NCBI RefSeq assembly: GCF_037042905.1
Contig: NC_087250.1
Location: 5,520,001 to 5,584,000 of the forward strand
DNA: 64,000 bases
Origin: Lytechinus pictus
Lineage: Eukaryota
Direction of reading: 5' to 3'
Positions 41,075-64,000 of this stretch are shown piece by piece (the first letter of the stretch is position 1; every line of letters begins with the position of its first letter). A model generated the notes under the pieces. That model saw only the letters and a program-made list of their open reading frames with translations. It made no database searches and was not told where the DNA came from. The position numbers and the translations under genes were made by a program.

Positions 41075-41256
41075 AGAGAGTTTTGTATACTTATTTCGTT
41101 CTACTGAAACATTACAGATAGTCGCTGATTATTCTAATTCTATAATAATAATAAAAAGTCACATTGCATGGTGAGATAGAGAAATAATTGGAAAGAATGA
41201 TGGACGAGGGAAAGAGAGAGAGAGAGATAAAGAAATGGAGGGTGAGATAGAAAAGG

Positions 41257-41288
<32 letters not shown>

Positions 41289-41375
41289 AGATATGAAAAA
41301 AAAAGATTGAGGAAGAGGTCATAATACAGATCATAACAAACAGATTGTCTTTTTATCTAGCATTCATGGATTCTC

Positions 41376-41705: not shown

Positions 41706-41966
41706 TATAGTGTAAGGGGGTTATAGTTAAGCAGACGACATCATGCACCCAAGTGACACAAGTCACATGACACATCGGCGGGAGGAACCACAACACAATA
41801 CAGTACACACGCCACTAAAACACTCCACTCCATACTCAACCCCCGAGAGGTACAGACGTCCTGAGAGCTGTGCATAACAAGAATAAGGTAAGGCTTTCTC
41901 CCGGTGTATATTGTGTGTAAGTTATAGTGAGTGTATGATTATTTATGTTATCGGCCCCCCTCTTTA
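41706..41966 (+). repeat. LTR copy 1 (261 bp)
   Basis: TATAGTGTAAGGGGG...CCCCCCTCTTTA; matches 50066-50326 and 60346-60606. Confidence 0.93.
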
Positions 41967-41967
41967 C

Positions 41968-41980
41968 TGGCGACGAGGAT
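41968..41980 (+). promoter_or_regulatory. Primer-binding site, tRNA-Ser(GCU) type (also 50328-50340)
   Basis: TGGCGACGAGGAT 1 nt after the LTR; complementary to the ...ATCCTCGTCGCCA 3' end of metazoan tRNA-Ser(GCU) as recalled. Confidence 0.8.
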
Positions 41981-44877: not shown

Positions 44878-44905
44878 AGACATCATCAAGTGGGCAGATA
44901 GGCTT

Positions 44906-45754: not shown

Positions 45755-45765
45755 AGGGCAGCCTA

Positions 45766-48700
45766 ATGCCACAAGACCAAGGGAACCAACGGGCACCGGA
45801 CTCACAAGCAAGCCCAGGGAGCCCGAAATTCTCTAAGGTAACTGAGCACCCTTGGAGGAACCCGCCATGGCCACCAGACATTTCTGGTGATGTTAAAGAT
45901 CAAGAGGTTGAAGAAGTCATTTGTAGAATTGTGTCTACTTCAACATTGAGTGTTGAGTTGGCAGTTAGCAAGGAGCCCATTACATCCGTTTTGGACACTG
46001 CGGCAGCTGTCACCATTATATCTGATAGGCTTTTCCATCGCCTCCAGCCTCGGCCGCCGATCCTTAAGCGTGTAGTTCTTAAGGGGGCTGGCCGAGACAT
46101 GACAATGGACGGCATTGTGATAGGACCTATCACGCTCCAGCTGGGTAACCAAATACTCAACGAGGAGATTCACGTAGCTCCGATAGCAGATGAGATGTTG
46201 TTTGGCGTTGATCTATTAAGAAAACACAATGCCAATATTAGCATTCCAAATGCTATCCTAACTTTGAACGGTGAAAACCTACCAATAATCCAACGCGAAG
46301 ATTCGGGGAGTACGGCAGAGGTGTGTGTAGATAAGGGCGTCTGTGTTCCTCCGTGTTCGGTTCGAAGGGTTAAGTGTTCGGTGGCACTTAATTCTAGCCC
46401 ATTCTTGGTGGAACCTTTGCCTTTCCTACCCATACCTGTTCTTATACCCCGGAGCCTTCATGAAAGTAAGAAAGATACAGAAGTTTTCCTGATAAATTCC
46501 TCTGATATGACCTACAAGTTACGAAGGGGTGATATGATTGGGAAAGCTTATCAAGTCTCGGTGATAGAACCTGAAATAGAACCCTCAGAGGATGTCACAG
46601 TTAGGAGTATTAACACTGTAAAAGCTTCGGACTCAGACATACCTCCTCACCTTCTGGACCTTTGGGGCCGCTCTAATGAGGGGCTGGCCCCAGAGGAACA
46701 GGAGGAGTTGAGAGGGCTGCTACTAAAATATCAATCAGTGTTCGCAAAAGATGAGTTTGACCTTGGTGGTTTCAACGAGGTAACTCATAGCATAGACACG
46801 GGTGATGCGAGGCCCATAAAACAAAAGATGAGGCGGACCCCCCTGAATTTCATTCAGGAGGAGCAGGCACATCTCGACAAGATGCTCGCCGCTGGAGTTA
46901 TCCAGCCGTCTATGTCTGAATGGGCATCGCCCCCTGTGTTAGTGAGGAAAAAAGATGGAGGAGTCCGATGGTGCATTGATTACCGCAAGTTAAACAATGT
47001 CACCAAAAAGGACGTCTACCCCTTACCATGTATTGAAGAATGCCTTGATATTTTAGCAGGCAACAAGTGGTTTTCCAAACTTGATGCCAACGCAGCTTAT
47101 TGGCAAATCAAGGTAAATGAAGCAGATAGGGACAAAACAGCCTTCGTTACAAAACATGGGCTGTATGAGTTCGTCCGCATGGGATTTGGCCTGTGCAATG
47201 CACCGGCCACCTTCCAACGTGTGATGAACTTAGTCCTGAGAGGTCTCACATGGGACGTGGCTCTTGCATTCTTGGATGATATCCTGGTATTGGGTAAATT
47301 ATTTCCAGACCACATCAAGAATCTAGGGGCAGTCCTGAGGCGTTTCAAGGACTACAGACTCAAATTGAAACCCAAGAAGTGTGCCTTGTTTCAACGAAAG
47401 GTGGAGTTCTTGGGTAGGGAAGTGGATGCTACAGGCTTGCATCTACCAGAGGAAAACATCCAAAGGGTAGTGGATTGGCCTACTCCTGCTTCCACTAAAG
47501 AAGTAGAGCAGTTCTTAGGGTTGGCCAACTATCACAGGGTGTTTATGAAAGATTATGCACGGGTGGCTGGGCCATTGTATGAGCTTACAGGCAATCATGC
47601 TTTCAGTTGGACAGAGTTTCATCAGGAGGCATTCGAACAAATCAAAGCTATATTAACCTCAGCCCCTGTGCTCACACTTCCAAACGCACATGACCCGTTC
47701 ATCCTAGATACGGATGCGTCTAGCACAGCGATTGGAGCAGAGCTGCTACAGGTTCAAAATGGTGAGGAGAAGGTCATAGCTTATGGCAGCTTGTCTCTTT
47801 CTCCTCAACAAAGGAACTATTGTGTCACTCGCCGCGAGCTCTTAGCGTTGGTGTTATTTTGCAGACAGTATAGGCATTACCTTTTAGGTAGGCCATTTAC
47901 TGTCAGAACGGATCATGGCAGCCTAACATGGCTGCTCAACTTCAAAACGCCGACAGGACAGCTGTCTCGCTGGCTGGAGGAGTTAGGGCAGTACAATATG
48001 AAAATCGAACACCGGCCCGGTAGGCGCCACTCTAATGCAGATTCTCTTTCGCGCATTCCTGATACAGAATCAGTGTGTGAAGGGTATGAGCATGGTGTGC
48101 GACTACAGGATTTGCCGTGTGGTGGGTGTTCATATTGTACCAAGAGACACAAAGAATGGGCACACTTTGTCGACTGTGTCGATGATGTTGTGCCATTAAG
48201 TCAAAGCCAAAGGGTCTCGAATGTGGCTGTTGAAGAAACTTTCCCTGTCACGCACATGGAAATATTGTTCAACAAGGCCAACTCATTTGAGATCCGAAGT
48301 ATCTCAGTTGACCCAACTGAGGTGGCAGAGGAACCGCCTTCTGACAATTTAGTCAAGCAAGAGCAAGAAAAAGACCAGGTTCTCGTGCCCCTCCGTGAGT
48401 GGTTAACCAACAAGAAAGAACTGGATGAAGGGACTCTGTTTCTCCTCCCGCCAGAGGGAAAGTTCTTGTGGACGAACAGAGAACTCTTCTACTTCAAAGA
48501 AGGAGTTATCTGGATGAAGAAGGATGTAGGTGATGTTATAGTGATTCCAGAATCACTACGGCATGACATCATTCGGCTGAATCATGACCCTCCTTCAGCA
48601 GGGCATGCTGGAATCAATCGCACTCGGGCTAAGCTAAAGTCCAAGTATTATTGGTATCGCATGTCAGAAGATATTCGCATTTACATAGCCAGGTGTACAA

Positions 48701-49074
48701 CTTGCAATCAGAACAAGAAAGCGACCCGCCCTGGGAGGCATCCTATGAAAAGTTTTCATGCGAGCGCCCCCATGGAACGTGTCCATCTTGACTTCATGGG
48801 CCCACTACCAAAGACAACAAATGGTAATGAAAACATCCTGGTTATGGTAGATCAATTTACCAAATGGGTGGAATGCGTACCTTTGCCTTCCCAAACCGCA
48901 GAGATGACAGCTCATGCAGCAGTGAGCAGTTTTTTCTGCCGGTTTGGATATCCATTTCAAATCTTCACGGATCAGGGCAGAAATTTTGAGAGTACACTTT
49001 TCAAGGACATGTGCCGTGTCCTTGATATTCACAAGTCAAAAACGACCGCATTCCGCCCCCAAGCAAAAAGTTGA
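45766..49074 (+). CDS. pol: Pol (protease-RT-RNase H-integrase), copy 1; frameshift near 49065, truncated at 49295
   Basis: VLDTAAAVTII; WCIDYRKLN; FLDDIL; TDASSTAIGA/TRRELLA/RTDHGSL; HDPPSAGH..CTTC; HLDFMGP; TDQGRNF; Gypsy domain order. Confidence 0.95.
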   Translation: MPQDQGNQRAPDSQASPGSPKFSKVTEHPWRNPPWPPDISGDVKDQEVEEVICRIVSTSTLSVELAVSKEPITSVLDTAAAVTIISDRLFHRLQPRPPILKRVVLKGAGRDMTMDGIVIGPITLQLGNQILNEEIHVAPIADEMLFGVDLLRKHNANISIPNAILTLNGENLPIIQREDSGSTAEVCVDKGVCVPPCSVRRVKCSVALNSSPFLVEPLPFLPIPVLIPRSLHESKKDTEVFLINSSDMTYKLRRGDMIGKAYQVSVIEPEIEPSEDVTVRSINTVKASDSDIPPHLLDLWGRSNEGLAPEEQEELRGLLLKYQSVFAKDEFDLGGFNEVTHSIDTGDARPIKQKMRRTPLNFIQEEQAHLDKMLAAGVIQPSMSEWASPPVLVRKKDGGVRWCIDYRKLNNVTKKDVYPLPCIEECLDILAGNKWFSKLDANAAYWQIKVNEADRDKTAFVTKHGLYEFVRMGFGLCNAPATFQRVMNLVLRGLTWDVALAFLDDILVLGKLFPDHIKNLGAVLRRFKDYRLKLKPKKCALFQRKVEFLGREVDATGLHLPEENIQRVVDWPTPASTKEVEQFLGLANYHRVFMKDYARVAGPLYELTGNHAFSWTEFHQEAFEQIKAILTSAPVLTLPNAHDPFILDTDASSTAIGAELLQVQNGEEKVIAYGSLSLSPQQRNYCVTRRELLALVLFCRQYRHYLLGRPFTVRTDHGSLTWLLNFKTPTGQLSRWLEELGQYNMKIEHRPGRRHSNADSLSRIPDTESVCEGYEHGVRLQDLPCGGCSYCTKRHKEWAHFVDCVDDVVPLSQSQRVSNVAVEETFPVTHMEILFNKANSFEIRSISVDPTEVAEEPPSDNLVKQEQEKDQVLVPLREWLTNKKELDEGTLFLLPPEGKFLWTNRELFYFKEGVIWMKKDVGDVIVIPESLRHDIIRLNHDPPSAGHAGINRTRAKLKSKYYWYRMSEDIRIYIARCTTCNQNKKATRPGRHPMKSFHASAPMERVHLDFMGPLPKTTNGNENILVMVDQFTKWVECVPLPSQTAEMTAHAAVSSFFCRFGYPFQIFTDQGRNFESTLFKDMCRVLDIHKSKTTAFRPQAKS

Positions 49075-49616
49075 GAGGGCGAATAGGACCGTGATGGATG
49101 CAGTGCGATGCTACGTCTCAAAGTCACAAAGGGACTGGGACAGGCATCTCCAGCAGATCGCAGGTGCTATTCGCTCCTCTGTAAATCGTACAACTGGATT
49201 TACCCCTAACAAGCTAATGCTGGGTCGGGAGGTTAATCTACCCTCTGATCTCGTATGCTCTGTTCCTCAACCCGCTCAAGAGCAGACCAAAGAAGGATTT
49301 ATTACCACACTTAGACCAGGGTTAACTTAAACCTTGCTATCGGAATACGAAACTTAAACCTAGGTTTAAATATGGCAGTTTATTACCACACTTAGACTAG
49401 GGTTAAGTTAAACCACGCTATCAGAATACGGGCCAGAGAGTTTTGTATACTTATTTCGTTCTACTGAAACATTACAGATAGTCGCTGATTATTCTAATTC
49501 TATAATAATAATAAAAAGTCACATTGCATGGTGAGATAGAGAAATAATTGGAAAGAATGATGGACGAGGGAAAGAGAGAGAGAGAGATAAAGAAATGGAG
49601 GGTGAGATAGAAAAGG

Positions 49617-49648
<32 letters not shown>

Positions 49649-50065
49649 AGATATGAAAAAAAAAGATTGAGGAAGAGGTCATAATACAGATCATAACAAA
49701 CAGATTGTCTTTTTATCTAGCATTCATGGATTCTCTCACACAACCTCTAAGTCTTCTGGGACGGGTATGGAAACAGTTCTCGGCTGCATGCCGTCACTAA
49801 TGTACTGAGAGACACCCCCTCCTTTGCGATTAGTACGGCATTTTGAGAAATGTAAGAATCCATCCACATTGAAAGAGTTTGCTGTATACGCTGTGAACCA
49901 TGTCTCGGTAATGGCGCACACTTCCAGTTTGTTTATTTGGATAAAAGTTTCAAATTCGTCAAACTTGTTCGATAGAGACCTGATATTAGACATGAAAATA
50001 CGGGGGAAATCTTATTTTTCATGTTTCACCTCTTTCTCATTTGTCACATGTAAGGGTGAGATGGA

Positions 50066-50326
50066 TATAGTGTAAGGGGGTTATAGTTAAGCAGACGACA
50101 TCATGCACCCAAGTGACACAAGTCACATGACACATCGGCGGGAGGAACCACAACACAATACAGTACACACGCCACTAAAACACTCCACTCCATACTCAAC
50201 CCCCGAGAGGTACAGACGTCCTGAGAGCTGTGCATAACAAGAATAAGGTAAGGCTTTCTCCCGGTGTATATTGTGTGTAAGTTATAGTGAGTGTATGATT
50301 ATTTATGTTATCGGCCCCCCTCTTTA
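50066..50326 (+). repeat. 5' LTR of the full-length element
   Basis: Matches 41706-41966; followed by the PBS. Confidence 0.93.
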
Positions 50327-51773
50327 CTGGCGACGAGGATTAAAGCGATTTTTATTTTATTTTCGGCAAAACATTTTCTTTACTTCGCCACAGCCAACGC
50401 CGTTGCAGAATCTGCGTTGGCCGTGGCCGAATATAAAAAAGCCGCCGCCATCTTGAAAATTTTAGGCTTTTTATTAATTTGAGCTGTTTGACTCTGTTTC
50501 GTCCATAATATTAAATAAAACAAAAAGTAACATATTATTTTAGTTTGAGATTTCATTTTTTGGTGGGAAAAGTTTGATTTTTAGTTCCGTAAATATACTC
50601 TATTTTTTTACCGATCGGCACTGCCGTGCTGGCCTTGAAGGAATTCAGTGGCTAGCTCGACAGGAGCTAATCGGATTTTTTTGGACAAAACATTATACGT
50701 TGTACTATTTAGGGTAAATATCCACTCATTTTGTTGACCATATATTTAAATCTTCCCTCGTTAGGATATATTTTTGTGGCCACGGAGTGTGATTGACTTT
50801 GATGAAATTTTGATTGCGTTTGACTGTGTTTACTGATGTGGTGTGAATGGATTGCTGAATATTATTGATGTTGTGAGTTGATTATTTTATTACAAGCCTG
50901 AATTTGCTTTTCTCCTTTGACCGCCGCGCTGCTGCTGCTGCTGCTGTTGTTAGTATTTTTTTTGTAATTATATTTCTGGGTGTTTTTTGGAGAAAACACC
51001 AGACATTTGCTGCTGCTGCTGCTGCTGCTGTTAATTGTTAGGAATTTATTATTTTTGGTCACGCGTCTCAGGAGATAATGAAATTCAGTCTTGTATTAAT
51101 TATTGTGTTGTTGCTGCTGCTGCTGTATTGAATATTTTGCTGCTGTTGCTCTGCTGTTGTATTGTTGCTGCTGCTGCTGTATTGAATATTTTGTTGTTTA
51201 TTGCTGCTGCCGTTGTGTAATTGAATTGTTGCTGCTGCTGTTGTATAATATATTTTGTTGCTGGTGCTGCCGTTGATGTGAGCTGTGCTGCTGACATTTG
51301 TATTAAATTCATATTCAATCAATTAATTATAAATTGTATAATTAAATAAATTTTGTATATATTTAGATAAATTGTACTTGTAAATATTAACTTTTGTTCA
51401 AAAAACAGAAAAAAAATAAATAAATAATAATAATTTATTTATTTGAAATTATTTCTATATATTTTTCATATCTTTCTTTGAACAAGTGAGCGTTCGATTG
51501 TTTGCATTTTTTCTTTTCTTTCCTAAGAATTAAATCATACAGGAATTTTATTTTTTAGGAAAGTAGCCTCTGGATTTTAATTTGATTACATTCTCAGGAT
51601 ATTGTGAGGTTAGTTCTGTTAATTCTCTTTCATTTTTTTTTCAAAAAGTTAATTTTGTCCCAGATTTATTTTGATTTTATCCGCAAGACAAAGTAGTCTG
51701 CAGGATAATTTTTGGCTAATTACAGTTCAATTTTGGAATTTAATTTTTGTTACTGATTAATTTCTACATCAAG

Positions 51774-53237
51774 ATGGCGAGCAACATACCAAGAATCAAA
51801 ATCAACTTGTGTTCGTCTGAGGAATTGATGAGTCTGCCCGGAGTGGGTATGGCCACCGCCAACCGCATTCTACATGCGAGGGAGGCGGCCGACCTTACTC
51901 CGGATACATTCTTGTCGATACCTCATATACCGAAGGCGGAACTGTTAGTTTACGCCTTTGATTATGAGCCAACAACAACGGCTCATAATGTGGACCGCAG
52001 AGAAGTGCGCTCCGAAGGAGACGAGCCTTCTACGAGCGTTCCACTTATTCCGTCTAAGGAGCCCCCCGTAAGCCAGGCGTTTGAGGCTTGGCCACAGCAC
52101 ACCCATGCACATAGCGCACAGGGTGCTGTAGGCCAATCTTCTCAGACACAGGCCGGGGAGGCCCCCTCATTTTTCACAGGGGGGAGGCCAGGTGGCGCTT
52201 TTACTCAGCAGCCTTCGGCCTCTCCAGAAGATAGGGCTAAGTCCCTCTGGGCTAATCAATTTGGGTTTTCAGGATGGAACGATGGTCTGTTCCCACCACA
52301 GGGTCCCCACCAAGTTACCCCACCAGGACCCCAGTTCCAATGTGGTCCTCGTGCCCAGGTAGCTACCCCACCAGGACCCCAGTTCCAATTTGGTCCTCAT
52401 GCCCAAGTAGATTTGCATGGTCAGGCTCCCGGTACTCAGGGTGGCCGACCAGCAATGTTCAATCAAACAACCCAGACACCTCCACATAGCTATCCACAGG
52501 CCGTTCCACACTTTACACAAGCACAGTACGAGGAAATGTATGGCGTGATGTTTAGGATGATGCAGATGATGCCATTCGGAGGAACTGGACAGCCAGCTCC
52601 TCCATACTGCAACCCTGCTGCCGCCTACGGTGGGTATTGCCCACCATGGGCTGGAGGCAGATATCCGCCACACTATCCTAACACTGTGGCCCCGCAAACC
52701 TCTCCCCAAGGACCATGTGACTTGCAATATGGGGGTAGCAACCCTGTGTATCAAGGCGCTGGACCTCAAGGAGATGGACATGGAGGCCCAGTATACAGTG
52801 AACATAGAAACACCACAAGGCCATCAGTAAGCCCTGGATACAGGGGGCTGTCAACAAGAAATCAGCCGCCCCGCGTCACCAGACTTACTTCGGCCTCAAG
52901 ACCTGTGGTACCGGAGTATGACGACAGAAGGCCCCCTTCTAGACCAACCTCTTTGCCGAAGACTATTTCGTTCGACGGCAAAGGAAGTTGGGCGGCCTTC
53001 TATTCAAAGTTCCAACTATACACCGAAAGACACGGCATGTCTGATGCAGACAAGAAATATCAGCTGTGTCTGGCGTTGGAGGCCGAAGCTAGTAAGTTCA
53101 TGGCTCTCATTCAGGAGAGCAACCCAAATATCGCCTTCTCTGACTTGGTTACCAAGTTGGAGAAGCGGTTCGCTCTCCAGGATAAAGCCGGAAGTTACTC
53201 GGATGCAATTTCAATAGGCTTTTCAACGCTCGGATGA
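51774..53237 (+). CDS. gag: Gag N-terminal part (HhH domain), copy 2; frameshifted near 53185
   Basis: Same translation as copy 1. Confidence 0.8.
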   Translation: MASNIPRIKINLCSSEELMSLPGVGMATANRILHAREAADLTPDTFLSIPHIPKAELLVYAFDYEPTTTAHNVDRREVRSEGDEPSTSVPLIPSKEPPVSQAFEAWPQHTHAHSAQGAVGQSSQTQAGEAPSFFTGGRPGGAFTQQPSASPEDRAKSLWANQFGFSGWNDGLFPPQGPHQVTPPGPQFQCGPRAQVATPPGPQFQFGPHAQVDLHGQAPGTQGGRPAMFNQTTQTPPHSYPQAVPHFTQAQYEEMYGVMFRMMQMMPFGGTGQPAPPYCNPAAAYGGYCPPWAGGRYPPHYPNTVAPQTSPQGPCDLQYGGSNPVYQGAGPQGDGHGGPVYSEHRNTTRPSVSPGYRGLSTRNQPPRVTRLTSASRPVVPEYDDRRPPSRPTSLPKTISFDGKGSWAAFYSKFQLYTERHGMSDADKKYQLCLALEAEASKFMALIQESNPNIAFSDLVTKLEKRFALQDKAGSYSDAISIGFSTLG

Positions 53238-53265
53238 AGACATCATCAAGTGGGCAGATAGGCTT

Positions 53266-54114
53266 ATGACCCTTGCAGGTCAGGCCTTTGTAGGCCTTCC
53301 CGACAAGTTCGTTCAAGAACTTGTAGTGGCAAGGTTCTGCCAAGGTGCCCAAGACAAAGATGCAGGGCATCATGTCCTGACTTCTCGGCCTGGGACCTTA
53401 GATGAAGCCATGACTAAGTACAAATGGTTTCAGTTTACCCAGAAGACCATGCACACGCATGGCCCTAGGTCGAGAAAAGAGGTAAGGCAGCTCTCGATGG
53501 GAGATGGCGATAGTGACCTAAGGGTGCAAAAGTTGTCTCCCCCAGAGGCTGCCAAGAAGGGAAATTCTAGCCTTGAGGCTAGACTAAGTGCTCTGGAAGC
53601 CCAAAATGCAGTATGGGCATCCAAGATGGATTCGATGGTCGCTGCGATCACGGATCTATCTAGAAGCACAAAGGAACTCTTGTCGGTGTCGGGAGGCCGG
53701 TCGAGGTACCCCTCAGGCCGTGCCCCTGTTACACCTGACAGGCAGAAATACACCTCCGGCCGAGTTCCTGGTACCCCGGACAGACCAAAGTATACCTATG
53801 GTCGGGCTCCAGGTACGCCAGACAGGCCGAGGTTTAACTCAAATTTGACACCAGATCGGTCAGTAGGAGGCCGAAGGCCATTTTTTGGCCCTTCGCCAAC
53901 TACAACTGATCGTCAGCGAAACTTCACAGGCTGTTTCAACTGTGGGGAAGAAGGCCATTTCAGCAGGGCCTGCCCCATGGGAAGATCGCCTGTGAACAGT
54001 AGACAAGTAAGGGCTGTAACCTTCGAGGAGGAGGGAAATGGACAGGGATCGGCGGAGATGGGGAGTCCCCGATCCGATCAGAGATCCCCTCCCCCGCCAT
54101 CCCCATTCCATTAA
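53266..54114 (+). CDS. gag: Gag C-terminal part with CCHC knuckle, copy 2
   Basis: CFNCGEEGHFSRAC. Confidence 0.85.
   Translation: MTLAGQAFVGLPDKFVQELVVARFCQGAQDKDAGHHVLTSRPGTLDEAMTKYKWFQFTQKTMHTHGPRSRKEVRQLSMGDGDSDLRVQKLSPPEAAKKGNSSLEARLSALEAQNAVWASKMDSMVAAITDLSRSTKELLSVSGGRSRYPSGRAPVTPDRQKYTSGRVPGTPDRPKYTYGRAPGTPDRPRFNSNLTPDRSVGGRRPFFGPSPTTTDRQRNFTGCFNCGEEGHFSRACPMGRSPVNSRQVRAVTFEEEGNGQGSAEMGSPRSDQRSPPPPSPFH
54033..54106 (+). promoter_or_regulatory. Predicted -1 ribosomal frameshift signal (also 45673-45746)
   Basis: G GGA AAT heptamer in the gag frame; pol frame is -1 and open from 54003; 7-bp stem GGATCGG/CCGATCC starts 6 nt downstream. Confidence 0.65.
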
Positions 54115-54125
54115 AGGGCAGCCTA

Positions 54126-57100
54126 ATGCCACAAGACCAAGGGAACCAACGGGCACCGGACTCACAAGCAAGCCCAGGGAGCCCGAAATTCTCTAAGGTA
54201 ACTGAGCACCCTTGGAGGAACCCGCCATGGCCACCAGACATTTCTGGTGATGTTAAAGATCAAGAGGTTGAAGAAGTCATTTGTAGAATTGTGTCTACTT
54301 CAACATTGAGTGTTGAGTTGGCAGTTAGCAAGGAGCCCATTACATCCGTTTTGGACACTGCGGCAGCTGTCACCATTATATCTGATAGGCTTTTCCATCG
54401 CCTCCAGCCTCGGCCGCCGATCCTTAAGCGTGTAGTTCTTAAGGGGGCTGGCCGAGACATGACAATGGACGGCATTGTGATAGGACCTATCACGCTCCAG
54501 CTGGGTAACCAAATACTCAACGAGGAGATTCACGTAGCTCCGATAGCAGATGAGATGTTGTTTGGCGTTGATCTATTAAGAAAACACAATGCCAATATTA
54601 GCATTCCAAATGCTATCCTAACTTTGAACGGTGAAAACCTACCAATAATCCAACGCGAAGATTCGGGGAGTACGGCAGAGGTGTGTGTAGATAAGGGCGT
54701 CTGTGTTCCTCCGTGTTCAGTTCGAAGGGTTAAGTGTTCGGTGGCACTTAATTCTAGCCCATTCTTGGTGGAACCTTTGCCTTTCCTACCCATACCTGTT
54801 CTTATACCCCGGAGCCTTCATGAAAGTAAGAAAGATACAGAAGTTTTCCTGATAAATTCCTCTGATATGACCTACAAGTTACGAAGGGGTGATATGATTG
54901 GGAAAGCTTATCAAGTCTCGGTGATAGAACCTGAAATAGAACCCTCAGAGGATGTCACAGTTAGGAGTATTAACACTGTAAAAGCTTCGGACTCAGACAT
55001 ACCTCCTCACCTTCTGGACCTTTGGGGCCGCTCTAATGAGGGGCTGGCCCCAGAGGAACAGGAGGAGTTGAGAGGGCTGCTACTAAAATATCAATCAGTG
55101 TTCGCAAAAGATGAGTTTGACCTTGGTGGTTTCAACGAGGTAACTCATAGCATAGACACGGGTGATGCGAGGCCCATAAAACAAAAGATGAGGCGGACCC
55201 CCCTGAATTTCATTCAGGAGGAGCAGGCACATCTCGACAAGATGCTCGCCGCTGGAGTTATCCAGCCGTCTATGTCTGAATGGGCATCGCCCCCTGTGTT
55301 AGTGAGGAAAAAAGATGGAGGAGTCCGATGGTGCATTGATTACCGCAAGTTAAACAATGTCACCAAAAAGGACGTCTACCCCTTACCATGTATTGAAGAA
55401 TGCCTTGATATTTTAGCAGGCAACAAGTGGTTTTCCAAACTTGATGCCAACGCAGCTTATTGGCAAATCAAGGTAAATGAAGCAGATAGGGACAAAACAG
55501 CCTTCGTTACAAAACATGGGCTGTATGAGTTCGTCCGCATGGGATTTGGCCTGTGCAATGCACCGGCCACCTTCCAACGTGTGATGAACTTAGTCCTGAG
55601 AGGTCTCACATGGGACGTGGCTCTTGCATTCTTGGATGATATCCTGGTATTGGGTAAATTATTTCCAGACCACATCAAGAATCTAGGGGCAGTCCTGAGG
55701 CGTTTCAAGGACTACAGACTCAAATTGAAACCCAAGAAGTGTGCCTTGTTTCAACGAAAGGTGGAGTTCTTGGGTAGGGAAGTGGATGCTACAGGCTTGC
55801 ATCTACCAGAGGAAAACATCCAAAGGGTAGTGGATTGGCCTACTCCTGCTTCCACTAAAGAAGTAGAGCAGTTCTTAGGGTTGGCCAACTATCACAGGGT
55901 GTTTATGAAAGATTATGCACGGGTGGCTGGGCCATTGTATGAGCTTACAGGCAATCATGCTTTCAGTTGGACAGAGTTTCATCAGGAGGCATTCGAACAA
56001 ATCAAAGCTATATTAACCTCAGCCCCTGTGCTCACACTTCCAAACGCACATGACCCGTTCATCCTAGATACGGATGCGTCTAGCACAGCGATTGGAGCAG
56101 AGCTGCTACAGGTTCAAAATGGTGAGGAGAAGGTCATAGCTTATGGCAGCTTGTCTCTTTCTCCTCAACAAAGGAACTATTGTGTCACTCGCCGCGAGCT
56201 CTTAGCGTTGGTGTTATTTTGCAGACAGTATAGGCATTACCTTTTAGGTAGGCCATTTACTGTCAGAACGGATCATGGCAGCCTAACATGGCTGCTCAAC
56301 TTCAAAACGCCGACAGGACAGCTGTCTCGCTGGCTGGAGGAGTTAGGGCAGTACAATATGAAAATCGAACACCGGCCCGGTAGGCGCCACTCTAATGCAG
56401 ATTCTCTTTCGCGCATTCCTGATACAGAATCAGTGTGTGAAGGGTATGAGCATGGTGTGCGACTACAGGATTTGCCGTGTGGTGGGTGTTCATATTGTAC
56501 CAAGAGACACAAAGAATGGGCACACTTTGTCGACTGTGTCGATGATGTTGTGCCATTAAGTCAAAGCCAAAGGGTCTCGAATGTGGCTGTTGAAGAAACT
56601 TTCCCTGTCACGCACATGGAAATATTGTTCAACAAGGCCAACTCATTTGAGATCCGAAGTATCTCAGTTGACCCAACTGAGGTGGCAGAGGAACCGCCTT
56701 CTGACAATTTAGTCAAGCAAGAGCAAGAAAAAGACCAGGTTCTCGTGCCCCTCCGTGAGTGGTTAACCAACAAGAAAGAACTGGATGAAGGGACTCTGTT
56801 TCTCCTCCCGCCAGAGGGAAAGTTCTTGTGGACGAACAGAGAACTCTTCTACTTCAAAGAAGGAGTTATCTGGATGAAGAAGGATGTAGGTGATGTTATA
56901 GTGATTCCAGAATCACTACGGCATGACATCATTCGGCTGAATCATGACCCTCCTTCAGCAGGGCATGCTGGAATCAATCGCACTCGGGCTAAGCTAAAGT
57001 CCAAGTATTATTGGTATCGCATGTCAGAAGATATTCGCATTTACATAGCCAGGTGTACAACTTGCAATCAGAACAAGAAAGCGACCCGCCCTGGGAGGCA

Positions 57101-57434
57101 TCCTATGAAAAGTTTTCATGCGAGCGCCCCCATGGAACGTGTCCATCTTGACTTCATGGGCCCACTACCAAAGACAACAAATGGTAATGAAAACATCCTG
57201 GTTATGGTAGATCAATTTACCAAATGGGTGGAATGCGTACCTTTGCCTTCCCAAACCGCAGAGATGACAGCTCATGCAGCAGTGAGCAGTTTTTTCTGCC
57301 GGTTTGGATATCCATTTCAAATCTTCACGGATCAGGGCAGAAATTTTGAGAGTACACTTTTCAAGGACATGTGCCGTGTCCTTGATATTCACAAGTCAAA
57401 AACGACCGCATTCCGCCCCCAAGCAAAAAGTTGA
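54126..57434 (+). CDS. pol: Pol (PR-RT-RNase H-integrase N-terminus and core), copy 2
   Basis: Same motifs as copy 1. Confidence 0.95.
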   Translation: MPQDQGNQRAPDSQASPGSPKFSKVTEHPWRNPPWPPDISGDVKDQEVEEVICRIVSTSTLSVELAVSKEPITSVLDTAAAVTIISDRLFHRLQPRPPILKRVVLKGAGRDMTMDGIVIGPITLQLGNQILNEEIHVAPIADEMLFGVDLLRKHNANISIPNAILTLNGENLPIIQREDSGSTAEVCVDKGVCVPPCSVRRVKCSVALNSSPFLVEPLPFLPIPVLIPRSLHESKKDTEVFLINSSDMTYKLRRGDMIGKAYQVSVIEPEIEPSEDVTVRSINTVKASDSDIPPHLLDLWGRSNEGLAPEEQEELRGLLLKYQSVFAKDEFDLGGFNEVTHSIDTGDARPIKQKMRRTPLNFIQEEQAHLDKMLAAGVIQPSMSEWASPPVLVRKKDGGVRWCIDYRKLNNVTKKDVYPLPCIEECLDILAGNKWFSKLDANAAYWQIKVNEADRDKTAFVTKHGLYEFVRMGFGLCNAPATFQRVMNLVLRGLTWDVALAFLDDILVLGKLFPDHIKNLGAVLRRFKDYRLKLKPKKCALFQRKVEFLGREVDATGLHLPEENIQRVVDWPTPASTKEVEQFLGLANYHRVFMKDYARVAGPLYELTGNHAFSWTEFHQEAFEQIKAILTSAPVLTLPNAHDPFILDTDASSTAIGAELLQVQNGEEKVIAYGSLSLSPQQRNYCVTRRELLALVLFCRQYRHYLLGRPFTVRTDHGSLTWLLNFKTPTGQLSRWLEELGQYNMKIEHRPGRRHSNADSLSRIPDTESVCEGYEHGVRLQDLPCGGCSYCTKRHKEWAHFVDCVDDVVPLSQSQRVSNVAVEETFPVTHMEILFNKANSFEIRSISVDPTEVAEEPPSDNLVKQEQEKDQVLVPLREWLTNKKELDEGTLFLLPPEGKFLWTNRELFYFKEGVIWMKKDVGDVIVIPESLRHDIIRLNHDPPSAGHAGINRTRAKLKSKYYWYRMSEDIRIYIARCTTCNQNKKATRPGRHPMKSFHASAPMERVHLDFMGPLPKTTNGNENILVMVDQFTKWVECVPLPSQTAEMTAHAAVSSFFCRFGYPFQIFTDQGRNFESTLFKDMCRVLDIHKSKTTAFRPQAKS

Positions 57435-58155
57435 GAGGGCGAATAGGACCGTGATGGATGCAGTGCGATGCTACGTCTCAAAGTCACAAAGGGACTGGGA
57501 CAGGCATCTCCAGCAGATCGCAGGTGCTATTCGCTCCTCTGTAAATCGTACAACTGGATTTACCCCTAACAAGCTAATGCTGGGTCGGGAGGTTAATCTA
57601 CCCTCTGATCTCGTATTCTCTGTTCCTCAACCCGCTCAAGAGCAGACCAAAGAAGAATATGTGGCCGAGTTGACTTGTGCAATGCGTAATGCTCATATTT
57701 CAGCTAGGGCTGCAATCAAATCTGCTCAGCGCAAGATGAAACGAGACTACGATATCAAACAATACACTCGGGAATTCGAGGTAAATGATCGTGTCTACAT
57801 TAGAGACACGGCCTGTGCCAAGGGGAAATCTCGTAAGTTAAACCCCCCTTGGAAAGGGCCGGCGATCATCGTAGAGAAGAGGTCCCCATATCTTTACAGA
57901 GTGGCCTTCAGAAAAACAATAGCCACTTACAATCACGACCGCTTGAAAAAGTGTACGGATCAGAGTAAGGCGGTTATTGAGACTCCTGGCAAAGACAAAC
58001 TATATTGTTTTTGCCGGAAGGCTGATGATGGCTCTCTGATGATATGTTGCGACGAATGCAATGAATGGTACCACGGAGCGTGCGTTGGTATCACAGAGAC
58101 GGAAGGATTAGAAAACGTGAAATGGTTTTGCCCCCCCTGTACTAAGAGGAGGTAG
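57427..58155 (+). CDS. pol: Integrase C-terminal part after the frameshift: catalytic Glu, GPY/F-like motif, PHD finger
   Basis: KVERANRT; PPWKGPAII; LYCFCRKADDGSLMICCDECNEWYHGACVGI...WFCPPC (C4HC3). Confidence 0.9.
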   Translation, partial: KVERANRTVMDAVRCYVSKSQRDWDRHLQQIAGAIRSSVNRTTGFTPNKLMLGREVNLPSDLVFSVPQPAQEQTKEEYVAELTCAMRNAHISARAAIKSAQRKMKRDYDIKQYTREFEVNDRVYIRDTACAKGKSRKLNPPWKGPAIIVEKRSPYLYRVAFRKTIATYNHDRLKKCTDQSKAVIETPGKDKLYCFCRKADDGSLMICCDECNEWYHGACVGITETEGLENVKWFCPPCTKRR

Positions 58156-58198
58156 AATATTTAGAAACAAATGTGTCGTCTATTATTATGCATGTACT

Positions 58199-59587
58199 AT
58201 GATAAGTCGTCTAATAACCACGTTTATATTTCTTTTCCTTCCCCAAATTCTCTCCCCCTCCCCCCATTTGTGCATCATTCTTCTCTTCCCATACAGAGAG
58301 AAAAAGGAGAGAGAGGAAATCCTGCTACCACCGGGGGTGGAGTTAAACGACATAGAGGTAGACGTTGGTTCGGCCCCAGAGGAGGCCCTTCCTGAGCCCC
58401 CCTCTGAAGCCGAACCAACAAAAATTGAATGTATGCAGCAGGCCTCGGAGACCCGTTCCGAAAATCCGCCTCCTGCACCAGCAGGGGCAGATGCTCGGAA
58501 GAAAGAGTTCTCTGAGGCCGAGCTTGCTAAAAAAAAACGTGAGCTTAATAGGCGTAGAAAAGAACGGGCCAAGCGTGCCAAAAAGACAAAAAAGCTGGCG
58601 CAAGACCCGCTTCCGGGAACAAATGCCGGTCCCTCGACCAGTGGAGGCCTTACGGTTGGGGTTGGTCGTGGCCGTGGACTACTGTCCACTTGGCCTAGAC
58701 CACCCCATCCAGTGGAGTGTTCCTCCATTGGAAGAGGGCGGGGAATCACCCCAAAAATGTTAGAGGAAGCTTTGGAGGAGAGCCCACGGCCACTGCGTGC
58801 ATTCGATGCACACTTTCATCCCGATCGCATAAAAATAAGAAAAGGAAAAACTGAACTTCAGGGACAGCCTCTACACCCGGTCGAGGTAGTCGGAGGGGTA
58901 TGGAACTTCTGTGATCCAGTAAGATACTCCGCCCCCGGCTTCCTCGACAGGGTATTCGAGGAACTCCCTGAAGGCTACGCAGTGGCGGTGGGCATCCACC
59001 CGAAGCAGGCCTATGGCCTGAAGCGTTACTATCTTGAGGCGCTGCGATCGGCTCTCGCCGACCCGAGAGTCAGAGGCCTGTCGGAGTTGGGCCTCGATTG
59101 GTCCACGGATGACTCCGAGTGGGGGGCACAGGAGCAGCTTTTTGAGCAGCTCCTAGGGCTCTCCACCGGAAGAGTCCTGGTACTCCATCTCCGGGGGGCC
59201 AATGGCTCTCGTCCCGGCAATGAGCCGATCCCTCGTGCTGTGCACAAGCTGGCGCGCGACGCGATTCGCCGACGGTGTCCGGCCGCTCAGCGCATCCATT
59301 TGCACTGTTTCATGGGTTCGCCGGACATCGTCGACGAATGGACGTCAGCGTTCCGTTATGCGTACTTTGGTGTCACGGGCAGTGCCTCTTACTACAATGG
59401 AGCGAATGCCAAGCTTAAGAGGCTTGGCATTCGGTCCATTCCAGGAAATCGTCTCCTGATCGAGACAGACGCCCCCTACCTGCCCGTCCGCCCTCGCCAC
59501 GGCTGGCAAACAGAAGCCTTTATCGGCGATGTCGGGCAGGTGGTGGCGTCTATCCGAGGGGTTCCTCTACCAGAGTTACTCGATTAA
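58199..59587 (+). CDS. tatD: ORF3: TatD-family metal-dependent nuclease preceded by an acidic/Pro-rich segment and a basic NLS-like segment; true start uncertain
   Basis: FDAHFHPD, VGIHP, LSELGLD, LVLHLR, IHLHCFMG, FGVTG and LLIETDAPYL occur in TatD order (family-level call). Confidence 0.9.
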   Translation: MISRLITTFIFLFLPQILSPSPHLCIILLFPYREKKEREEILLPPGVELNDIEVDVGSAPEEALPEPPSEAEPTKIECMQQASETRSENPPPAPAGADARKKEFSEAELAKKKRELNRRRKERAKRAKKTKKLAQDPLPGTNAGPSTSGGLTVGVGRGRGLLSTWPRPPHPVECSSIGRGRGITPKMLEEALEESPRPLRAFDAHFHPDRIKIRKGKTELQGQPLHPVEVVGGVWNFCDPVRYSAPGFLDRVFEELPEGYAVAVGIHPKQAYGLKRYYLEALRSALADPRVRGLSELGLDWSTDDSEWGAQEQLFEQLLGLSTGRVLVLHLRGANGSRPGNEPIPRAVHKLARDAIRRRCPAAQRIHLHCFMGSPDIVDEWTSAFRYAYFGVTGSASYYNGANAKLKRLGIRSIPGNRLLIETDAPYLPVRPRHGWQTEAFIGDVGQVVASIRGVPLPELLD

Positions 59588-60331
59588 CGCCAGGGAGCTG
59601 TATTGCCTCAAATAAAGGGGCAATGCTGCTCCCTTGCACCTGTCTCTGCCTTTTACCTTAATTGTAAGGCTATTTTATATACAAAAGTTGTATTTTATAT
59701 GTGTTTATTATGCTTTATATATGTCATACAGAAAATGGACGCCTATGAGTTACAATTCTTATTATATATACTAGTTATGCTTTTTGTTGAAATTGGAAAA
59801 TCAGATAAGCAACAATATTTTATATATATATGTATGTATTCATTGATTTAAAAATTTGTTTATTTTTACTTAGGTACATAGCAGTGAGCTTATTTAATTT
59901 ATGTCAAGGCAGAGACAAGGTAAGAATATTTTTTACAATTGGTAATGATGTACAATGTATATATTTATGTATTTGTGTTATATTTATGTTTATGAACATA
60001 AAGAAAAGAAAATGATCACAAAAAAAGAAAATAAAAAGATCACAGAAGAAGATGAAGAAAAAAAAAGAAGGACAAAAAGATCAAAGATAAAGAAAAGAAA
60101 AAGATTACAAAAGAAGAAAATAAATATTACAGAAAGAAAAAAGAGATCAAAGAATACAAGAAAAAAGAAAGAAAAGATATGCTTGAGAAAAAAAAAAAAA
60201 AATAAATGAAAAATAAATGTATGTTGATGTATATTTTATGTTAGGTTAAGTTGAGTTATACCTTACGTTAAGAATGTTAAATATATTAAGTTATGTTAAG
60301 TTGTATTGGAAATAGGCCCCCCAATTTTTTT

Positions 60332-60345
60332 AGGGTGGGGGGGAG
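60332..60345 (+). promoter_or_regulatory. Polypurine tract
   Basis: AGGGTGGGGGGGAG immediately before the 3' LTR. Confidence 0.85.
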
Positions 60346-60606
60346 TATAGTGTAAGGGGGTTATAGTTAAGCAGACGACATCATGCACCCAAGCGACACA
60401 AGTCACATGACACATCGGCGGGAGGAACCACAACACAATACAGTACACACGCCACTAAAACACTCCACTCCATACTCAACCCCAGAGAGGTACAGACGTC
60501 CTGAGAGCTGTGCATAACAAGAATAAGGTAAGGCTTTCTCCCGGTGTATATTGTGTGTAAGTTATAGTGAGTGTATGATTATTTATGTTATCGGCCCCCC
60601 TCTTTA
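60346..60606 (+). repeat. 3' LTR
   Basis: 261 bp; differs from the 5' LTR at aagTgacaca/aagCgacaca and cccCgagagg/cccAgagagg. Confidence 0.93.
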
Positions 60607-61200
60607 TGGATATCAAGTTCGATCGATCAATAGATGATCTATTTTGGGAGAGATCTCTTAGTCCATCGTTTCGATAATTTACGCGAACGGGTATTTTCGC
60701 AGTTTACGAGAGCCCCCTCTGCATCCTCGAGTTCTTGTAATCCCGTACTGATTAGCAACCAAATTCGTTTGTGACGGCAACGGCACCTTTTGTTTGTTAC
60801 GTAACCTATAAAGGTCATTCCCTGAGTACGTGAGGCGCCGAGGTAAGTCTATTGTCCGTTGCTCGATTAGAGTGGTCATTTTATCATCAATGACCAAACG
60901 ATCTTCTTCCAAGTTCAAAGCCGTTTGAGAAGATAATACTCTTCGGTTTAACACACTGCAAACAGGTATACGTGGTAACAACACAAATGAAAAGCATCCA
61001 GAGTTTCATGAAACTTGAAAATACAACAACAGCCATAGTTCAATATTGCACAAAAGTCAGTTCATAATTATCACAGATTCACATGCAACGAGACTTACTA
61101 GTACTTGAAAGAATCACTTTTCTTAGTCGTCTACGAAAGAAGAGAAATTTCAGCAACACAAATTGCTCTCTGCGCTAGGGAAACAGCGCCCTCAGTTTGT
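60607..61200 (-). mobile_element. 5' portion of the LINE split by the Gypsy element (outer end approximate)
   Basis: RTRGCRGG basic motif; the empty-site join reads ...DRSNLISISPLH...(one stop)...DFPRIFMSNIRS in one frame. Confidence 0.55.
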
Positions 61201-62852
61201 AGCAGAACAAATATTGAATGCTCAAAATATAAGATAACAGTTTATATTAAATGTATGTGGCTTTCACTTGAAAGCTTTAATCAAAACGCAAAACAAAATC
61301 GACGATCATTTAAAAGTATTATCTTAAATTATGCATTTGGGGGGTGGGGTTTTAAAGGACAAGTCCATCTTAACAAAAAAGTTGAGATGCATAAAAAAAA
61401 TTGAAATTTAACAAACATGACACTGATAAATTTATCAAAACTGGATGTTAAATTAACTTGACCCGTTCCACCCGAAGAACATGATAACTTGTTCTAGTTT
61501 TCCACACTTACAGCCTAAGAACGAGATAACTCGTGCACCGGTTGCATAACTTTGAGGATTTTTTCTAACAAATTTTTAACACAGTCTTACTTATGAGATT
61601 GGTCATGATATTTACATCAGTCGAAATTTAAAATATTTTAATTATCAATCAAGGTGGTCCCTTTATCAAAAGGTGTAATTTGCCCTCGGAAAGATGTTAT
61701 TTCCCTAGTAATTGTCTCGAAACCATCCCCTAGTAACCAGCGTTTCATGTAAGAATAATCAGCCAATCAAAGCGCAGCTTGCGCTCAAACTCGGAATGTG
61801 TTGTCCTCATTTCCATACTCAACACGGGGACGTCCGTTGTTCGAGTGGAAAAACCAATCAAAATGCCGCTCTGCTTGATTAGGTGTTCAAAATGTTCACT
61901 GGGCGGTCGATCGTGACGTTACGTTTCTTTATTTACATACGTATTAAGCGGTAGTGAGATACAGTATTCAGGGCTTTCCGGATGTTAGGAAAGCCTAAAA
62001 ATATATACGTTTATCACGTTGGTACGGCATAATTATTACAGAAAAATCAGTCTTTGCAAATCACCTGGATTAAAACAATCAAGTAAATCTTTTTTTTAAA
62101 TGAATAAATGGGTTTTTCATGTATTTATCCACCATCAGGTGATAGCGTCATCGAAAAGAAAAATTATTTATCGATAATATTTTCAACGATATTAATAATG
62201 ATAATTATAATGATAATAATGTATAAGATGCCATATATCTTCACGGATGTTTCAAAGTAAGCATTCTTTCTGCATACATTGAAACATGCGGGTTAATATA
62301 GTCGTGTTTGTTCCGCCTTCCTTGTTCCGCAATGTCAATTTATAAAATATTTCTCTGAACAAAATCATTATTTATTAGATAGTTATCCGAAATATAAATT
62401 ATTGATATTCATAGGCGCGCAATCTCCAATAAATATCAGAGAGAGAGGAAGGGGTGCACAGAAAAACCCTTTTCCATTTCTGACACTTACATGTAAACGG
62501 TTTGGAGGGATATCCACTCTGTAAATGCCCCCCCCCCCCCAACTCATCAATGGCACATGAATGAATAAATTGGGGCACCAATTCTTATGACAATAGCCCA
62601 TTTCTTTTTCAATCAGTTATCAATCGATATTCAACGGGGTGCACCCGTTGTGATACTTCCTTTGTTTTGTCTCTAAAGAAAACTCCTTCACACCTCTTAT
62701 AACTTTCAACCTCTCAAAGGACAGGTCTACGCTATTAGTATGGCGGCTTGGTGGGGGGGGGGGGGTGGCCTGTAGTGGTCCTATAGGCATATACGTACGA
62801 ACATGTAACACGATTTCTGTAGTTTTAATTATACATGTAGTTCTTTATTATA

Positions 62853-63671
62853 CAGTGCGTCCCAGAAAAAACGAAACCGAGATTTAGCGATGATTTATCA
62901 TAACTTAATCACAAATGAAATAGACAAATGACCTACCAATGTAAAGCTTGGAATCTCCTCTTTCATCTGATATTACTAAGATTATTTTTTCTTCACGCAT
63001 GAGTGAGCAAAAACAATTTGAAGAGGGGATACCAAAAAGTAATTTGGCTGGTTGTATCTGGCTTTCAAAAGGAAAACCACATTGTTAAAGAATTCAATAT
63101 CTGCCCTTTAATTTGATACCTCAATTACAGAAAATGGTCAAGAAATAACAAAGTTCTGGTTATTTGAAATAAGGCTTGAATTTCAATAATTTCATAAAAT
63201 TAAGAGGTTTTACAGGCTAGCGTTCAAACTCACTCGACACTCCGTTTTGTTTACGATCAGCCATGTATTAAGTCTTTTGTTAACCGTGCGATAGCTTATG
63301 TGGGAAACCGGTGAAAACAGTTTATTTAATGAAATTATGGAAATTCAAGCCTTATTTCAAATAACCAGAACTTTGTTATTTCTTGACCATTTTCTGTGAT
63401 TGAGGTATCAAATCAAAGAGCGGATATTGAACTTTTAAGACATGTGATTTTCTTTTTGAAATTCAGATACTCCCCTCCAAATGACTTTTTGGTATCCTTT
63501 CTTCAAATTGTTTTTGCTCATTCATGCGTGAATGAGGAACATTCTAAGTAATATCACATGAAAGAGGAGATTCTAAGCTTTACCTTGGTAGGTCATTTGT
63601 CTATTGCATTTGTGATTAAGTTATGATAAATCATCGCTAAATCTCGGTTTCGTTTTTTCTGAGACGCACTG
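62853..63671. mobile_element. Tc1/mariner-type MITE with long inverted arms
   Basis: TA|CAGTGCGTCCCAGAAAAAACGAAACCGAG ... CTCGGTTTCGTTTTTTCTGAGACGCACTG|TA; arms ~350 bp. Confidence 0.85.
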
Positions 63672-64000
63672 TATATCGGACTATAATGTTTATCATGTTT
63701 ATAGGACTTTATAGTTTTTTTTTTTTTTTTTTTTTAACACCAACTACTTACGACATACTTTTCTTTCATAATTGGCAACGAAAGGCAAGTGGTATGATAT
63801 ATACATATATTGCAAAGCATGACTTGGAGAGCAGAAATTAATAACAGAACATACATTAGAGCGTGAACATCTCCGATGAAGAGATATAGATGATAAATTG
63901 GACAAGAAAAATAATTGTCTGTCTGTGAAAACAGTGGCGGCAAGGGGGCATTTATGCCCCCCTCCCCTGAAATTTGAAGAAAAAAATGTTTTGTAAATGC

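Follow-up and report, generated by a model that had tools for sequence, protein, structure and literature searches.

A putative TatD-family nuclease encoded by the third gene of a Ty3/Gypsy retrotransposon in the sea urchin Lytechinus pictus and in related elements

Retrotransposons with long terminal repeats (LTRs) are usually viewed as elements composed of gag and pol, sometimes with the addition of env, and insect errantiviruses such as gypsy and ZAM are Ty3/Gypsy elements that carry a third, env-like open reading frame (ORF). Here we describe an element from a 64,000-nucleotide stretch of the Lytechinus pictus genome (assembly GCF_037042905.1, contig NC_087250.1, positions 5,520,001 to 5,584,000; hereafter the window, with positions counted from its first letter), the third gene of which is predicted to encode a nuclease of the TatD family. 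Like the errantiviruses, it possesses gag, a pol that encodes protease (PR), reverse transcriptase (RT), RNase H and integrase (IN) in this order, and a third ORF (ORF3) between pol and the polypurine tract (PPT). ORF3 may also be expressed from a spliced subgenomic RNA, as some evidence suggests, with an acceptor just before its start. Unlike them, the window element has as its ORF3 product a predicted soluble TatD nuclease with a stretch resembling a nuclear localization signal (NLS), and not a membrane glycoprotein. Our findings support the existence of a Ty3/Gypsy lineage in which a putative nuclease gene, not described so far, is conserved as an accessory, and we consider quite probable the explanation as a whole, in which the order of gag, pol with a terminal PHD finger, and TatD is fixed in the lineage, ORF3 is likely spliced, and its product would act as a nuclease in the nucleus.

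Three further groups of described systems invite comparison. According to the excerpted text of PMC10711561, TatD enzymes are 3'-5' exonucleases, and human TATDN2 acts on structured RNA as a 3' exonuclease and as an endonuclease and degrades the RNA strand of R-loops, an activity that needs E593, E705 and D707. In the portion of PMC12709183 at hand, medaka Tatdn2 is expressed in germ cells and is required for DNA repair in, and protection of, primordial germ cells. ORF3 shares with TATDN2 a long N-terminal region that matches no Pfam family, a C-terminal TatD domain and the same motifs, as far as the excerpts of these two reports describe them (PMC10711561, PMC12709183), and the counterparts of the three required residues (Glu of ELGLD, and Glu and Asp of ETD) are all kept. 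Several relatives of ORF3 are also named 'putative deoxyribonuclease TATDN2' by NCBI, although these names are automatic only. It differs from TATDN2 in being encoded inside an LTR retrotransposon, and its closest solved structures are bacterial proteins of the YcfH/YabD type. With the bacterial TatD, YcfH and YabD exonucleases it has in common the predicted fold and the metal ligands, whereas identity in Foldseek alignments is only 21-22%, and the element proteins form a clade of their own with long N-terminal extensions. Finally, PHD fingers and chromodomains are known in retrotransposons, the PHD fingers as readers of histone tails, and CopiaMBD is a documented case of host-domain capture, as stated in the available part of PMC6673714. 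The integrase of the window element likewise ends in a PHD finger, but the domains of chromoviruses, PHD-bearing elements and CopiaMBD are fused to pol and guide integration, whereas the TatD enzyme is encoded by a separate gene.

Positions 50069-60606 of the window constitute one copy of a Ty3/Gypsy LTR retrotransposon, all features of which lie on the + strand. The 5' LTR (50069-50326, 258 bp) and the 3' LTR (60349-60606), a direct repeat of the first, align with 2 mismatches over 258 bp, and the same letters, TGGA(TAT), form a target-site duplication (TSD) on either side (50062-50068 and 60607-60613). The letters TAT can be assigned to either the TSD or the LTR, so that the first 3 bases of the 5' LTR are ambiguous, the LTR begins at TATAGTG or AGTG, and the TSD is 4-7 bp long. 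From reading of the sequence, a match to a primer-binding site (PBS), TGGCGACGAGGA, lies one base past the 5' LTR (50328-50339), and the PPT, AGGGTGGGGGGGAG, occupies 60332-60345. The gag gene (51775-54114), identified from ORFs and Pfam, is split over two frames in this copy (51744-53237 and 53218-54114) and contains a CCHC knuckle (zf-CCHC, 5.9e-7) together with a match to HHH_3 (4e-6). The pol gene (54003-58155) follows in the -1 frame relative to gag, and Pfam coordinates place protease, RT (RVT_1, 3.6e-30), RNase H (RT_RNaseH_2, 1.1e-31) and integrase (Integrase_H2C2, 2.6e-19; core domain rve, 8.5e-11) in the order typical of Ty3/Gypsy elements, with a C-terminal PHD finger (1.2e-11) at about 58006-58140 and a stop codon at 58153-58155. 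ORF3 itself (58297-59615) was delimited from its translation, Pfam, an annotated relative and structure prediction with Foldseek comparison, and is separated from the PPT by an AT-rich 3' untranslated stretch of ~0.7 kb (59616-60331) with an A-rich low-complexity block at 59995-60210. An earlier annotation of the window from its letters alone (the first-pass annotation) had proposed a Gypsy retrotransposon whose third gene takes the place of env, lying as a sense ORF between pol and the PPT/3' LTR (60332-60606) and inside TSD-bounded LTRs, and the structure described above bears this out in each respect.

ORF3 is contained in a + strand ORF of 488 aa (58121-59587; stop-to-stop translation), in a frame that differs from that of pol. 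The TatD motifs reported in the first-pass annotation (DAHFH, GIHP, ELGLD, LHLR, HCFMG and ETDAPY) are all present in this order, as are the expected metal ligands, namely HxH, Glu of ELGLD, His of LHLR, His of HCF and Asp of ETD. A profile search, which that annotation had suggested as a check, matched residues 228-486 to TatD_DNase (PF01026; E 5.9e-27), covering profile positions 1-240 of 253, and since the match scores 95.1 bits against a cut-off of 27, chance is excluded. The TatD domain thus corresponds to about 58802-59578, the C-terminal 260 residues of ORF3. Ahead of it lies an acidic and K/R-rich region with two GRGRG motifs, in which the NLS-like K/R-rich stretch that had been noticed earlier is located at 58529-58594. 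Residues 1-227 match no Pfam family, TatD_DNase being the only Pfam family in ORF3 and no envelope glycoprotein being found there; the N-terminal region of 35 of 35 relatives is similarly devoid of Pfam families, remnants of PHD or CCHC aside. A profile-assisted AlphaFold2 model of the TatD domain is, with confidence, a TIM barrel (predicted local distance difference test, 91.3; predicted template modelling score, 0.89). When this model was compared with the PDB by Foldseek, 16 of the 17 top-listed entries were named TatD, the remaining one being yeast 3e2v, deposited as an uncharacterized amidohydrolase. The leading entries (6l25, 2gzx, 1xwy, 1j6o, 2xio, 2y1h and 1yix) had E values of 2e-15 to 4e-12, and the TatD entries include proteins of S. 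aureus, E. coli (TatD, YcfH and YjjV) and T. maritima as well as human TATDN1 and TATDN3. Searching the PDB by sequence placed bacterial proteins of the YcfH/YabD type and TatD nearest, at about 1e-17. Judged from sequence and model together, ORF3 encodes what is predicted to be a complete TatD-family TIM-barrel domain and a putative metal-dependent nuclease.

The copy in the window is inactive, with frame breaks in gag, integrase and ORF3 and without a start codon for ORF3. In gag, the break lies near 53185, a place at which the length of the window is matched neither by raw reads nor by contigs of two other runs; in the integrase it lies near 57427, where contigs of the runs designated X1 and X4 differ in length. 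The break in ORF3, near 59580, leads to a premature stop at 59585-59587 and the loss of the last residues, and contigs of two other runs again differ in length. An annotated L. pictus protein of 440 aa, P0082, shares 98.6% identity with the window ORF3 along 426 aa, and its frame stays open as far as the later stop at 59613-59615. The ORF end at 59615 given in the first-pass annotation accordingly holds for this annotated relative (P0082/P0001) and for contigs of two other runs, but not for the frame of the window, which stops at 59587. The ATG at 58199 that had been taken as the start fares less well, as it lies upstream of an AG splice acceptor (58295-58296) and inside the intron of one contig. 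It is probably not the start, since P0082 begins past this acceptor, with its Met three codons after 58297; at the corresponding positions of the window (58304-58306) there is no ATG.

Given a single decayed copy, it might be supposed that the TatD gene entered this element by accident, through a one-off transduction of a host TATDN2-like gene, a nested insertion or an assembly chimera between pol and the 3' LTR. In favour of such an accident, NCBI labels near-identical proteins as ordinary genes ('YabD-like', 'TATDN2'), and the window contains a suspicious tandem duplication of 8.36 kb. This head-to-tail duplication (40934-49295, + strand, a duplicate of 49294-57655; 8362 nt at 99.976% identity by blastn) takes in 0.77 kb of sequence upstream of the element, the 5' LTR, gag and the part of pol that ends with the integrase core; it may be a true segmental duplication or may have arisen during assembly. 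However, its second unit continues into the complete element and the duplication ends at 57655, before ORF3 is reached, so that TatD is present once in the window; the PPT and TSD, in addition, enclose ORF3. A one-off event is also contradicted by four other sequences, P0084, L087, P0119 and P0008, in which the same order of PHD-bearing pol and TatD is repeated. We therefore reject this explanation, to which we attach next to no credence, and the concern raised in the first-pass annotation that TatD might occur in this copy only does not apply.

Among these four, P0084 is a gene model of Strongylocentrotus purpuratus (3157 aa) that clusters with the TatD protein P0007 and is collinear with the window element, with gag, PR, RT, RNase H, IN, the start of a PHD finger and TatD in succession, followed by unrelated host exons. 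Its pol is 64% identical to that of the window over 894 aa and its TatD domain 38% (43% for P0007, the same S. purpuratus TatD). A nearly complete element is found in L087, an LTR-bounded contig of 11,691 bp deposited under a bacterial metagenome-assembled genome (MAG). Its LTRs start at 187 and 11598 and are 99% identical over the 94 nt that could be compared, the 3' LTR being clipped by the end of the contig. Open gag and pol genes, as in an autonomous copy, are found here and not in the window: gag (1650-3965) has a CCHC knuckle, an uninterrupted pol of 1425 aa ends in a PHD finger, and ORF3 (8209-11442) occupies one frame with TatD at its C-terminus (2.5e-41). A PBS-like sequence, TGGCGTCGTCGA, stands at the position matching the PBS of the window, a purine tract, AAAACGGGGGAG, is immediately 5' of the 3' LTR, and pol and TatD are 52% and 34% identical to those of the window, respectively. 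As Ty3/Gypsy elements are eukaryotic, L087 is presumably host DNA that was binned into the bacterial MAG, and at least one such genome thus holds an element of this kind as contamination; a second protein of the TatD family, P0013, bears the same kind of MAG label. In P0119 (798 aa; named members of its cluster are from Mytilus), an integrase C-terminus and PHD finger precede TatD, and this N-terminal part matches the corresponding region of the window with an E value of 2e-16. P0008 opens with 38 residues that match the C-terminal 38 residues of the window pol at 55% identity, and again TatD follows. Across the linked cases identities are 36-64% for pol and 30-43% for TatD, and a PHD finger or its remnant is present on the integrase in 5 of 5. 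Since these sequences share the same order, the TatD third gene is a regular part of this lineage of elements, not something that one copy happened to carry.

The phylogeny of the TatD domain provides a measure of how widespread and how constrained this gene is. An exhaustive search for homologues yielded 3929 representatives at E<=1e-3, of which 653 were at <=1e-10 and 65 at <=1e-30, and the best-scoring 150 (representatives at 50% identity) were all at 1e-24 or better. In a tree of 168 full-length TatD domains, built with FastTree only and accompanied by long-branch warnings, 161 rows form a clade with 99% support, separate from bacterial-like rows and from a small protist-like group bearing CCHC. 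The window and Lytechinus proteins fall inside a subclade of 36 rows together with S. purpuratus and P0008 rows, while the mussel-like row is distant from the window, such that the linked rows occupy two remote parts of the clade. Its taxa are echinoids, a hemichordate and bivalves, with named members from Lytechinus, Strongylocentrotus, Diadema, Ptychodera, Mya, Mytilus, Pinctada, Mizuhopecten, Argopecten and Tegillarca. Lytechinus variegatus alone harbours at least 4 divergent TatD lineages. In the soft-shell clam, Mya arenaria, the cluster of P0207 comprises 13 loci, whose proteins share at least 90% identity and in several cases are of full length (824 aa). The scaffolds that carry these loci are of at least 10 different sizes, a picture typical of a family that was active recently.

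Despite this breadth, the catalytic core has been retained. Of the 161 rows, 149 preserve the full set of six metal ligands, at sequence identities of only 30-45%, and an alignment of 18 relatives shows D-H-x-H, E, H, H and E-x-D unchanged in 18 of 18. When the L. pictus protein is compared with that of L. variegatus, 241 of 284 positions are identical in the TatD domain, as compared with 102 of 154 in the N-terminal region. Both the retention of the ligands and the better conservation of the domain argue against the gene being carried along neutrally and serving neither the element nor the host, an explanation that the broken, startless ORF3 of the window might otherwise favour and that we regard as very improbable. 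The N-termini of the long forms have two conserved modules: of 116 such N-termini, 45 contain a zinc-finger-like CPxxGC..H..H and 43 contain PAxLxHWR, neither with a Pfam family, and these modules are seen in P0007, P0008, P0014, P0119 and others and are absent from the Lytechinus short form. GRGRG was also considered as a motif of the whole family and rejected, as it occurs in only 10 of the 116 long N-termini.

Beyond annotated proteins, a metagenome scan with the TatD alignment was evaluated for the best 80 of 565 relatives. Of these 80, 79 match at E 3e-20 or weaker with 22-37% identity and were taken for ordinary, probably bacterial TatD; the remaining one, L001 (36% identity, 5e-45), is of the present family, but at 2.7 kb is too short to provide context. 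In viral contigs, 6 loci matched, with identities of 25-29% (47% over 42 aa). A fold search of BFVD found one TatD-like viral protein, from the giant virus Yasminevirus (7e-11), and no reverse-transcribing virus among the 50 matches listed.

As regards the expression of ORF3, several features suggest splicing. A polypyrimidine tract ending in an AG acceptor (58228-58296, AG at 58295-58296, + strand) precedes the ORF3 exon, which begins at 58297, with the AG 8 nt ahead of the ORF3 start. This assignment draws on the sequence, on a splice joint in the X4 run, on the start of X4 contig 16 at 58296 and on a step in X1 depth. The joint is found in one X4 contig, where 50712/3 is followed directly by 58296/7 and the 7583 nt left out have GT..AG ends; the corresponding leader donor, G|GTAAAT, is at 50713-50714 (+ strand; intron 50714-58296). 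A second candidate donor in the 5' LTR, AAG|GTAAGG (50247|50248), is consensus-like. In X1, summed contig depth rises from 17.7 in the bin before 58296 to 100-132 across four ORF3 bins (131.8 at the step), and two X1 contigs have loose ends before 58295 whose letters are absent from the window and, by eye, resemble the LTR donor region at 50247. L087 appears to be of similar design: by eye, its LTR contains CAG|GTAGGA, and a YAG precedes the ATG of ORF3 by 16 nt, the YAG/ATG region lying 27 nt after the pol stop. Taken together, these signals suggest that ORF3 is likely expressed in the manner of env, from a spliced subgenomic RNA that joins a donor in the LTR or leader to an acceptor few bases before the ORF3 start.

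Two further observations concern transcripts of this region. In two raw RNA-seq runs, 8 and 4 reads match only a pyrimidine-rich stretch of 36 nt at 58269-58304, with unrelated sequence on both sides; these derive from another transcript that shares the short stretch and are no evidence for ORF3 expression. Further downstream, loose ends of X1 contigs are seen ahead of 59882 and past 59922. In the window, an AG immediately precedes 59873 and a GT stands at 59921, such that 59873-59920 looks like a small exon in the 3' untranslated region joined to sequence outside the window.

Several results weigh against a fixed, spliced third gene with a nuclease role in the element. The run types of X1 and X4 are not on record ('RNA?', a guess, for X1 and '?' for X4), and the X4 joint is carried by 1 contig of depth 3.38 with 30 nt on its shorter side, which could be a DNA copy of a spliced RNA. 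From the two raw RNA-seq runs, with ~6% of each read, 43 and 12 reads were placed, none of them within 58640-59671, where depth is 0, and no joint was seen. Upstream of 58296 the abundant X1 form departs from the window, and it falls off beyond about 59671; because it differs on both sides of the exon it comes from another locus, possibly from a gene no longer inside an element. The L087 ORF3 has one in-frame stop. Remnants of pol and TatD occur together in only 3 of 264 fetched proteins (P0084, P0119 and P0008), a Pfam scan found PHD, RT or IN in 0 of 71 representatives, and most relatives are seen as proteins without genomic context. Finally, TATDN3 reached only 4.5e-4 in the PDB sequence search, and the best solved relatives are bacterial proteins of the YcfH type.

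Some of these points would also fit a different history, in which most of the TatD family are now host genes, either domesticated from an element or borrowed by it long ago. The strongly represented L. pictus form would then be a cellular gene in which the old acceptor persists, and the window ORF3 a decaying relic. Such a history would account for the unfamiliar sequence on both sides of the ORF3 exon in the abundant X1 form, for the annotation of P0082 as a gene on a 42-Mb scaffold and for the preponderance of stand-alone proteins among the relatives. Yet stand-alone predictions would be obtained from a separate ORF3 in any case, and the absence of pol domains from the 71 representatives is likewise as expected of a separate ORF (a search for longer fused proteins gave 8 matches, with RT or IN in none). 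The letters upstream of the X1 exon resemble the LTR donor region, the 13 near-identical, dispersed Mya loci look mobile, and L087 combines both LTRs and open gag and pol with an ORF3 that has one stop. We consequently judge a family composed mainly of host genes to be improbable, and prefer a third gene that is maintained within the element lineage.

The biochemical role of ORF3 can be approached by analogy with TATDN2. The first-pass annotation had regarded the nuclease as captured, which would mean a transfer from host to element, and had suggested that it could trim cDNA ends, repair integration gaps, clear abasic or RNA-containing intermediates or reduce host sensing of cDNA, all of them conjectural roles. 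In the mechanism we propose, the K/R stretch at 58529-58594 would take the protein into the nucleus, where it would act as a Mg2+/metal-dependent nuclease on nucleic-acid intermediates of the element or on target chromatin. By this analogy, the likeliest substrates would be the RNA strand of RNA:DNA hybrids and R-loops, in addition to 3' ends. Integration guided by the PHD finger may further direct the element to transcribed, R-loop-prone chromatin, and could be coupled there with removal of R-loop RNA. Alternatively, the protein may serve as a counter-defence or host-sparing factor that destroys surplus cDNA, RNA:DNA hybrids or damage signals, and so avoids host sensors and checkpoints. As pol has an RNase H of its own, a second nuclease for hybrids is not obviously needed for replication, which favours such a role. 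Host TREX1 and the nucleases of the SET complex play a comparable sparing role for HIV-1. The 3'-5' exonuclease activity of TatD enzymes and the removal of hybrid RNA by TATDN2 (excerpt of PMC10711561), the protection of primordial germ cells by medaka Tatdn2 (excerpt of PMC12709183) and the aid that host nucleases give a retrovirus (in the portion of PMC2644782 available) all fit it as well, whereas the NLS-like stretch points to the nucleus and not to cytosolic cDNA. We regard host sparing as unlikely, although it is the main rival mechanism and the data do not separate it from a role as a replication factor.

In full-text literature on TatD or TATDN2 with retroelements, no paper came up in which a retrotransposon is said to carry a TatD gene (Repbase, GyDB, subscription journals and supplements were outside the scope of these searches), so that the prior description allowed for in the first-pass annotation did not come to light. 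The nearest mention, in the part of the giant-squid genome paper at hand, is a figure legend in which a TATDN2-like gene is merely listed beside transposon-derived genes (PMC6962438). A conserved nuclease gene with expression of its own would represent an accessory function of a kind new to Metaviridae-like elements, one concerned with the handling of reverse-transcription intermediates, R-loops or cDNA ends, and TatD-bearing elements would offer a natural experiment on the action of TATDN2-type enzymes. It also follows that dozens of invertebrate gene models named 'TATDN2-like' may be transposon genes. A bolder extension, which we put forward as a doubtful conjecture, is that the 'TATDN2-like', 'YabD-like' and 'uncharacterized' TatD genes of sea urchins, hemichordates and bivalves are mostly third genes of one ancient Gypsy lineage with a PHD-bearing integrase, and that animal TATDN2 may be directly related to them, either as a domesticated ORF3 or as the source of a single very old capture. 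The idea of a shared origin is prompted by the same build, a presumably disordered N-terminus followed by TatD, by the resolution of R-loops and by the germ-cell expression of TATDN2 in medaka; if it were correct, a retroelement would have carried an RNase for R-loops and hybrids as a standard part of its life cycle.

Additional features of the window element concern gag and the leader. The N-terminus of gag (residues 14-48 of 51744-53237) contains a DNA-binding motif of the helix-hairpin-helix type that is barely over the cut-off (HHH_3, 27.3 bits; HHH, 25.6 bits) and is followed by ~350 residues of low complexity rich in P, Q and G; the motif was not found in the gag of L087. The 5' leader between PBS and gag start extends over 1.4 kb and includes CTG/TTG-rich imperfect repeats at 50904-51260, with units of ~54-64 nt. 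On the - strand of the flank upstream of the element, 49736-50011 (and again 41376-41651) holds an ORF fragment that by eye resembles the apurinic-type endonuclease start of a non-LTR retrotransposon. Upstream of the element, tandem units of ~320 bp occupy 39816-40830 and have an inverted copy 6 kb away (33259-34277), and downstream of it a 355-bp inverted repeat pair is found at 62849-63203 and 63321-63675, with 90% identity.

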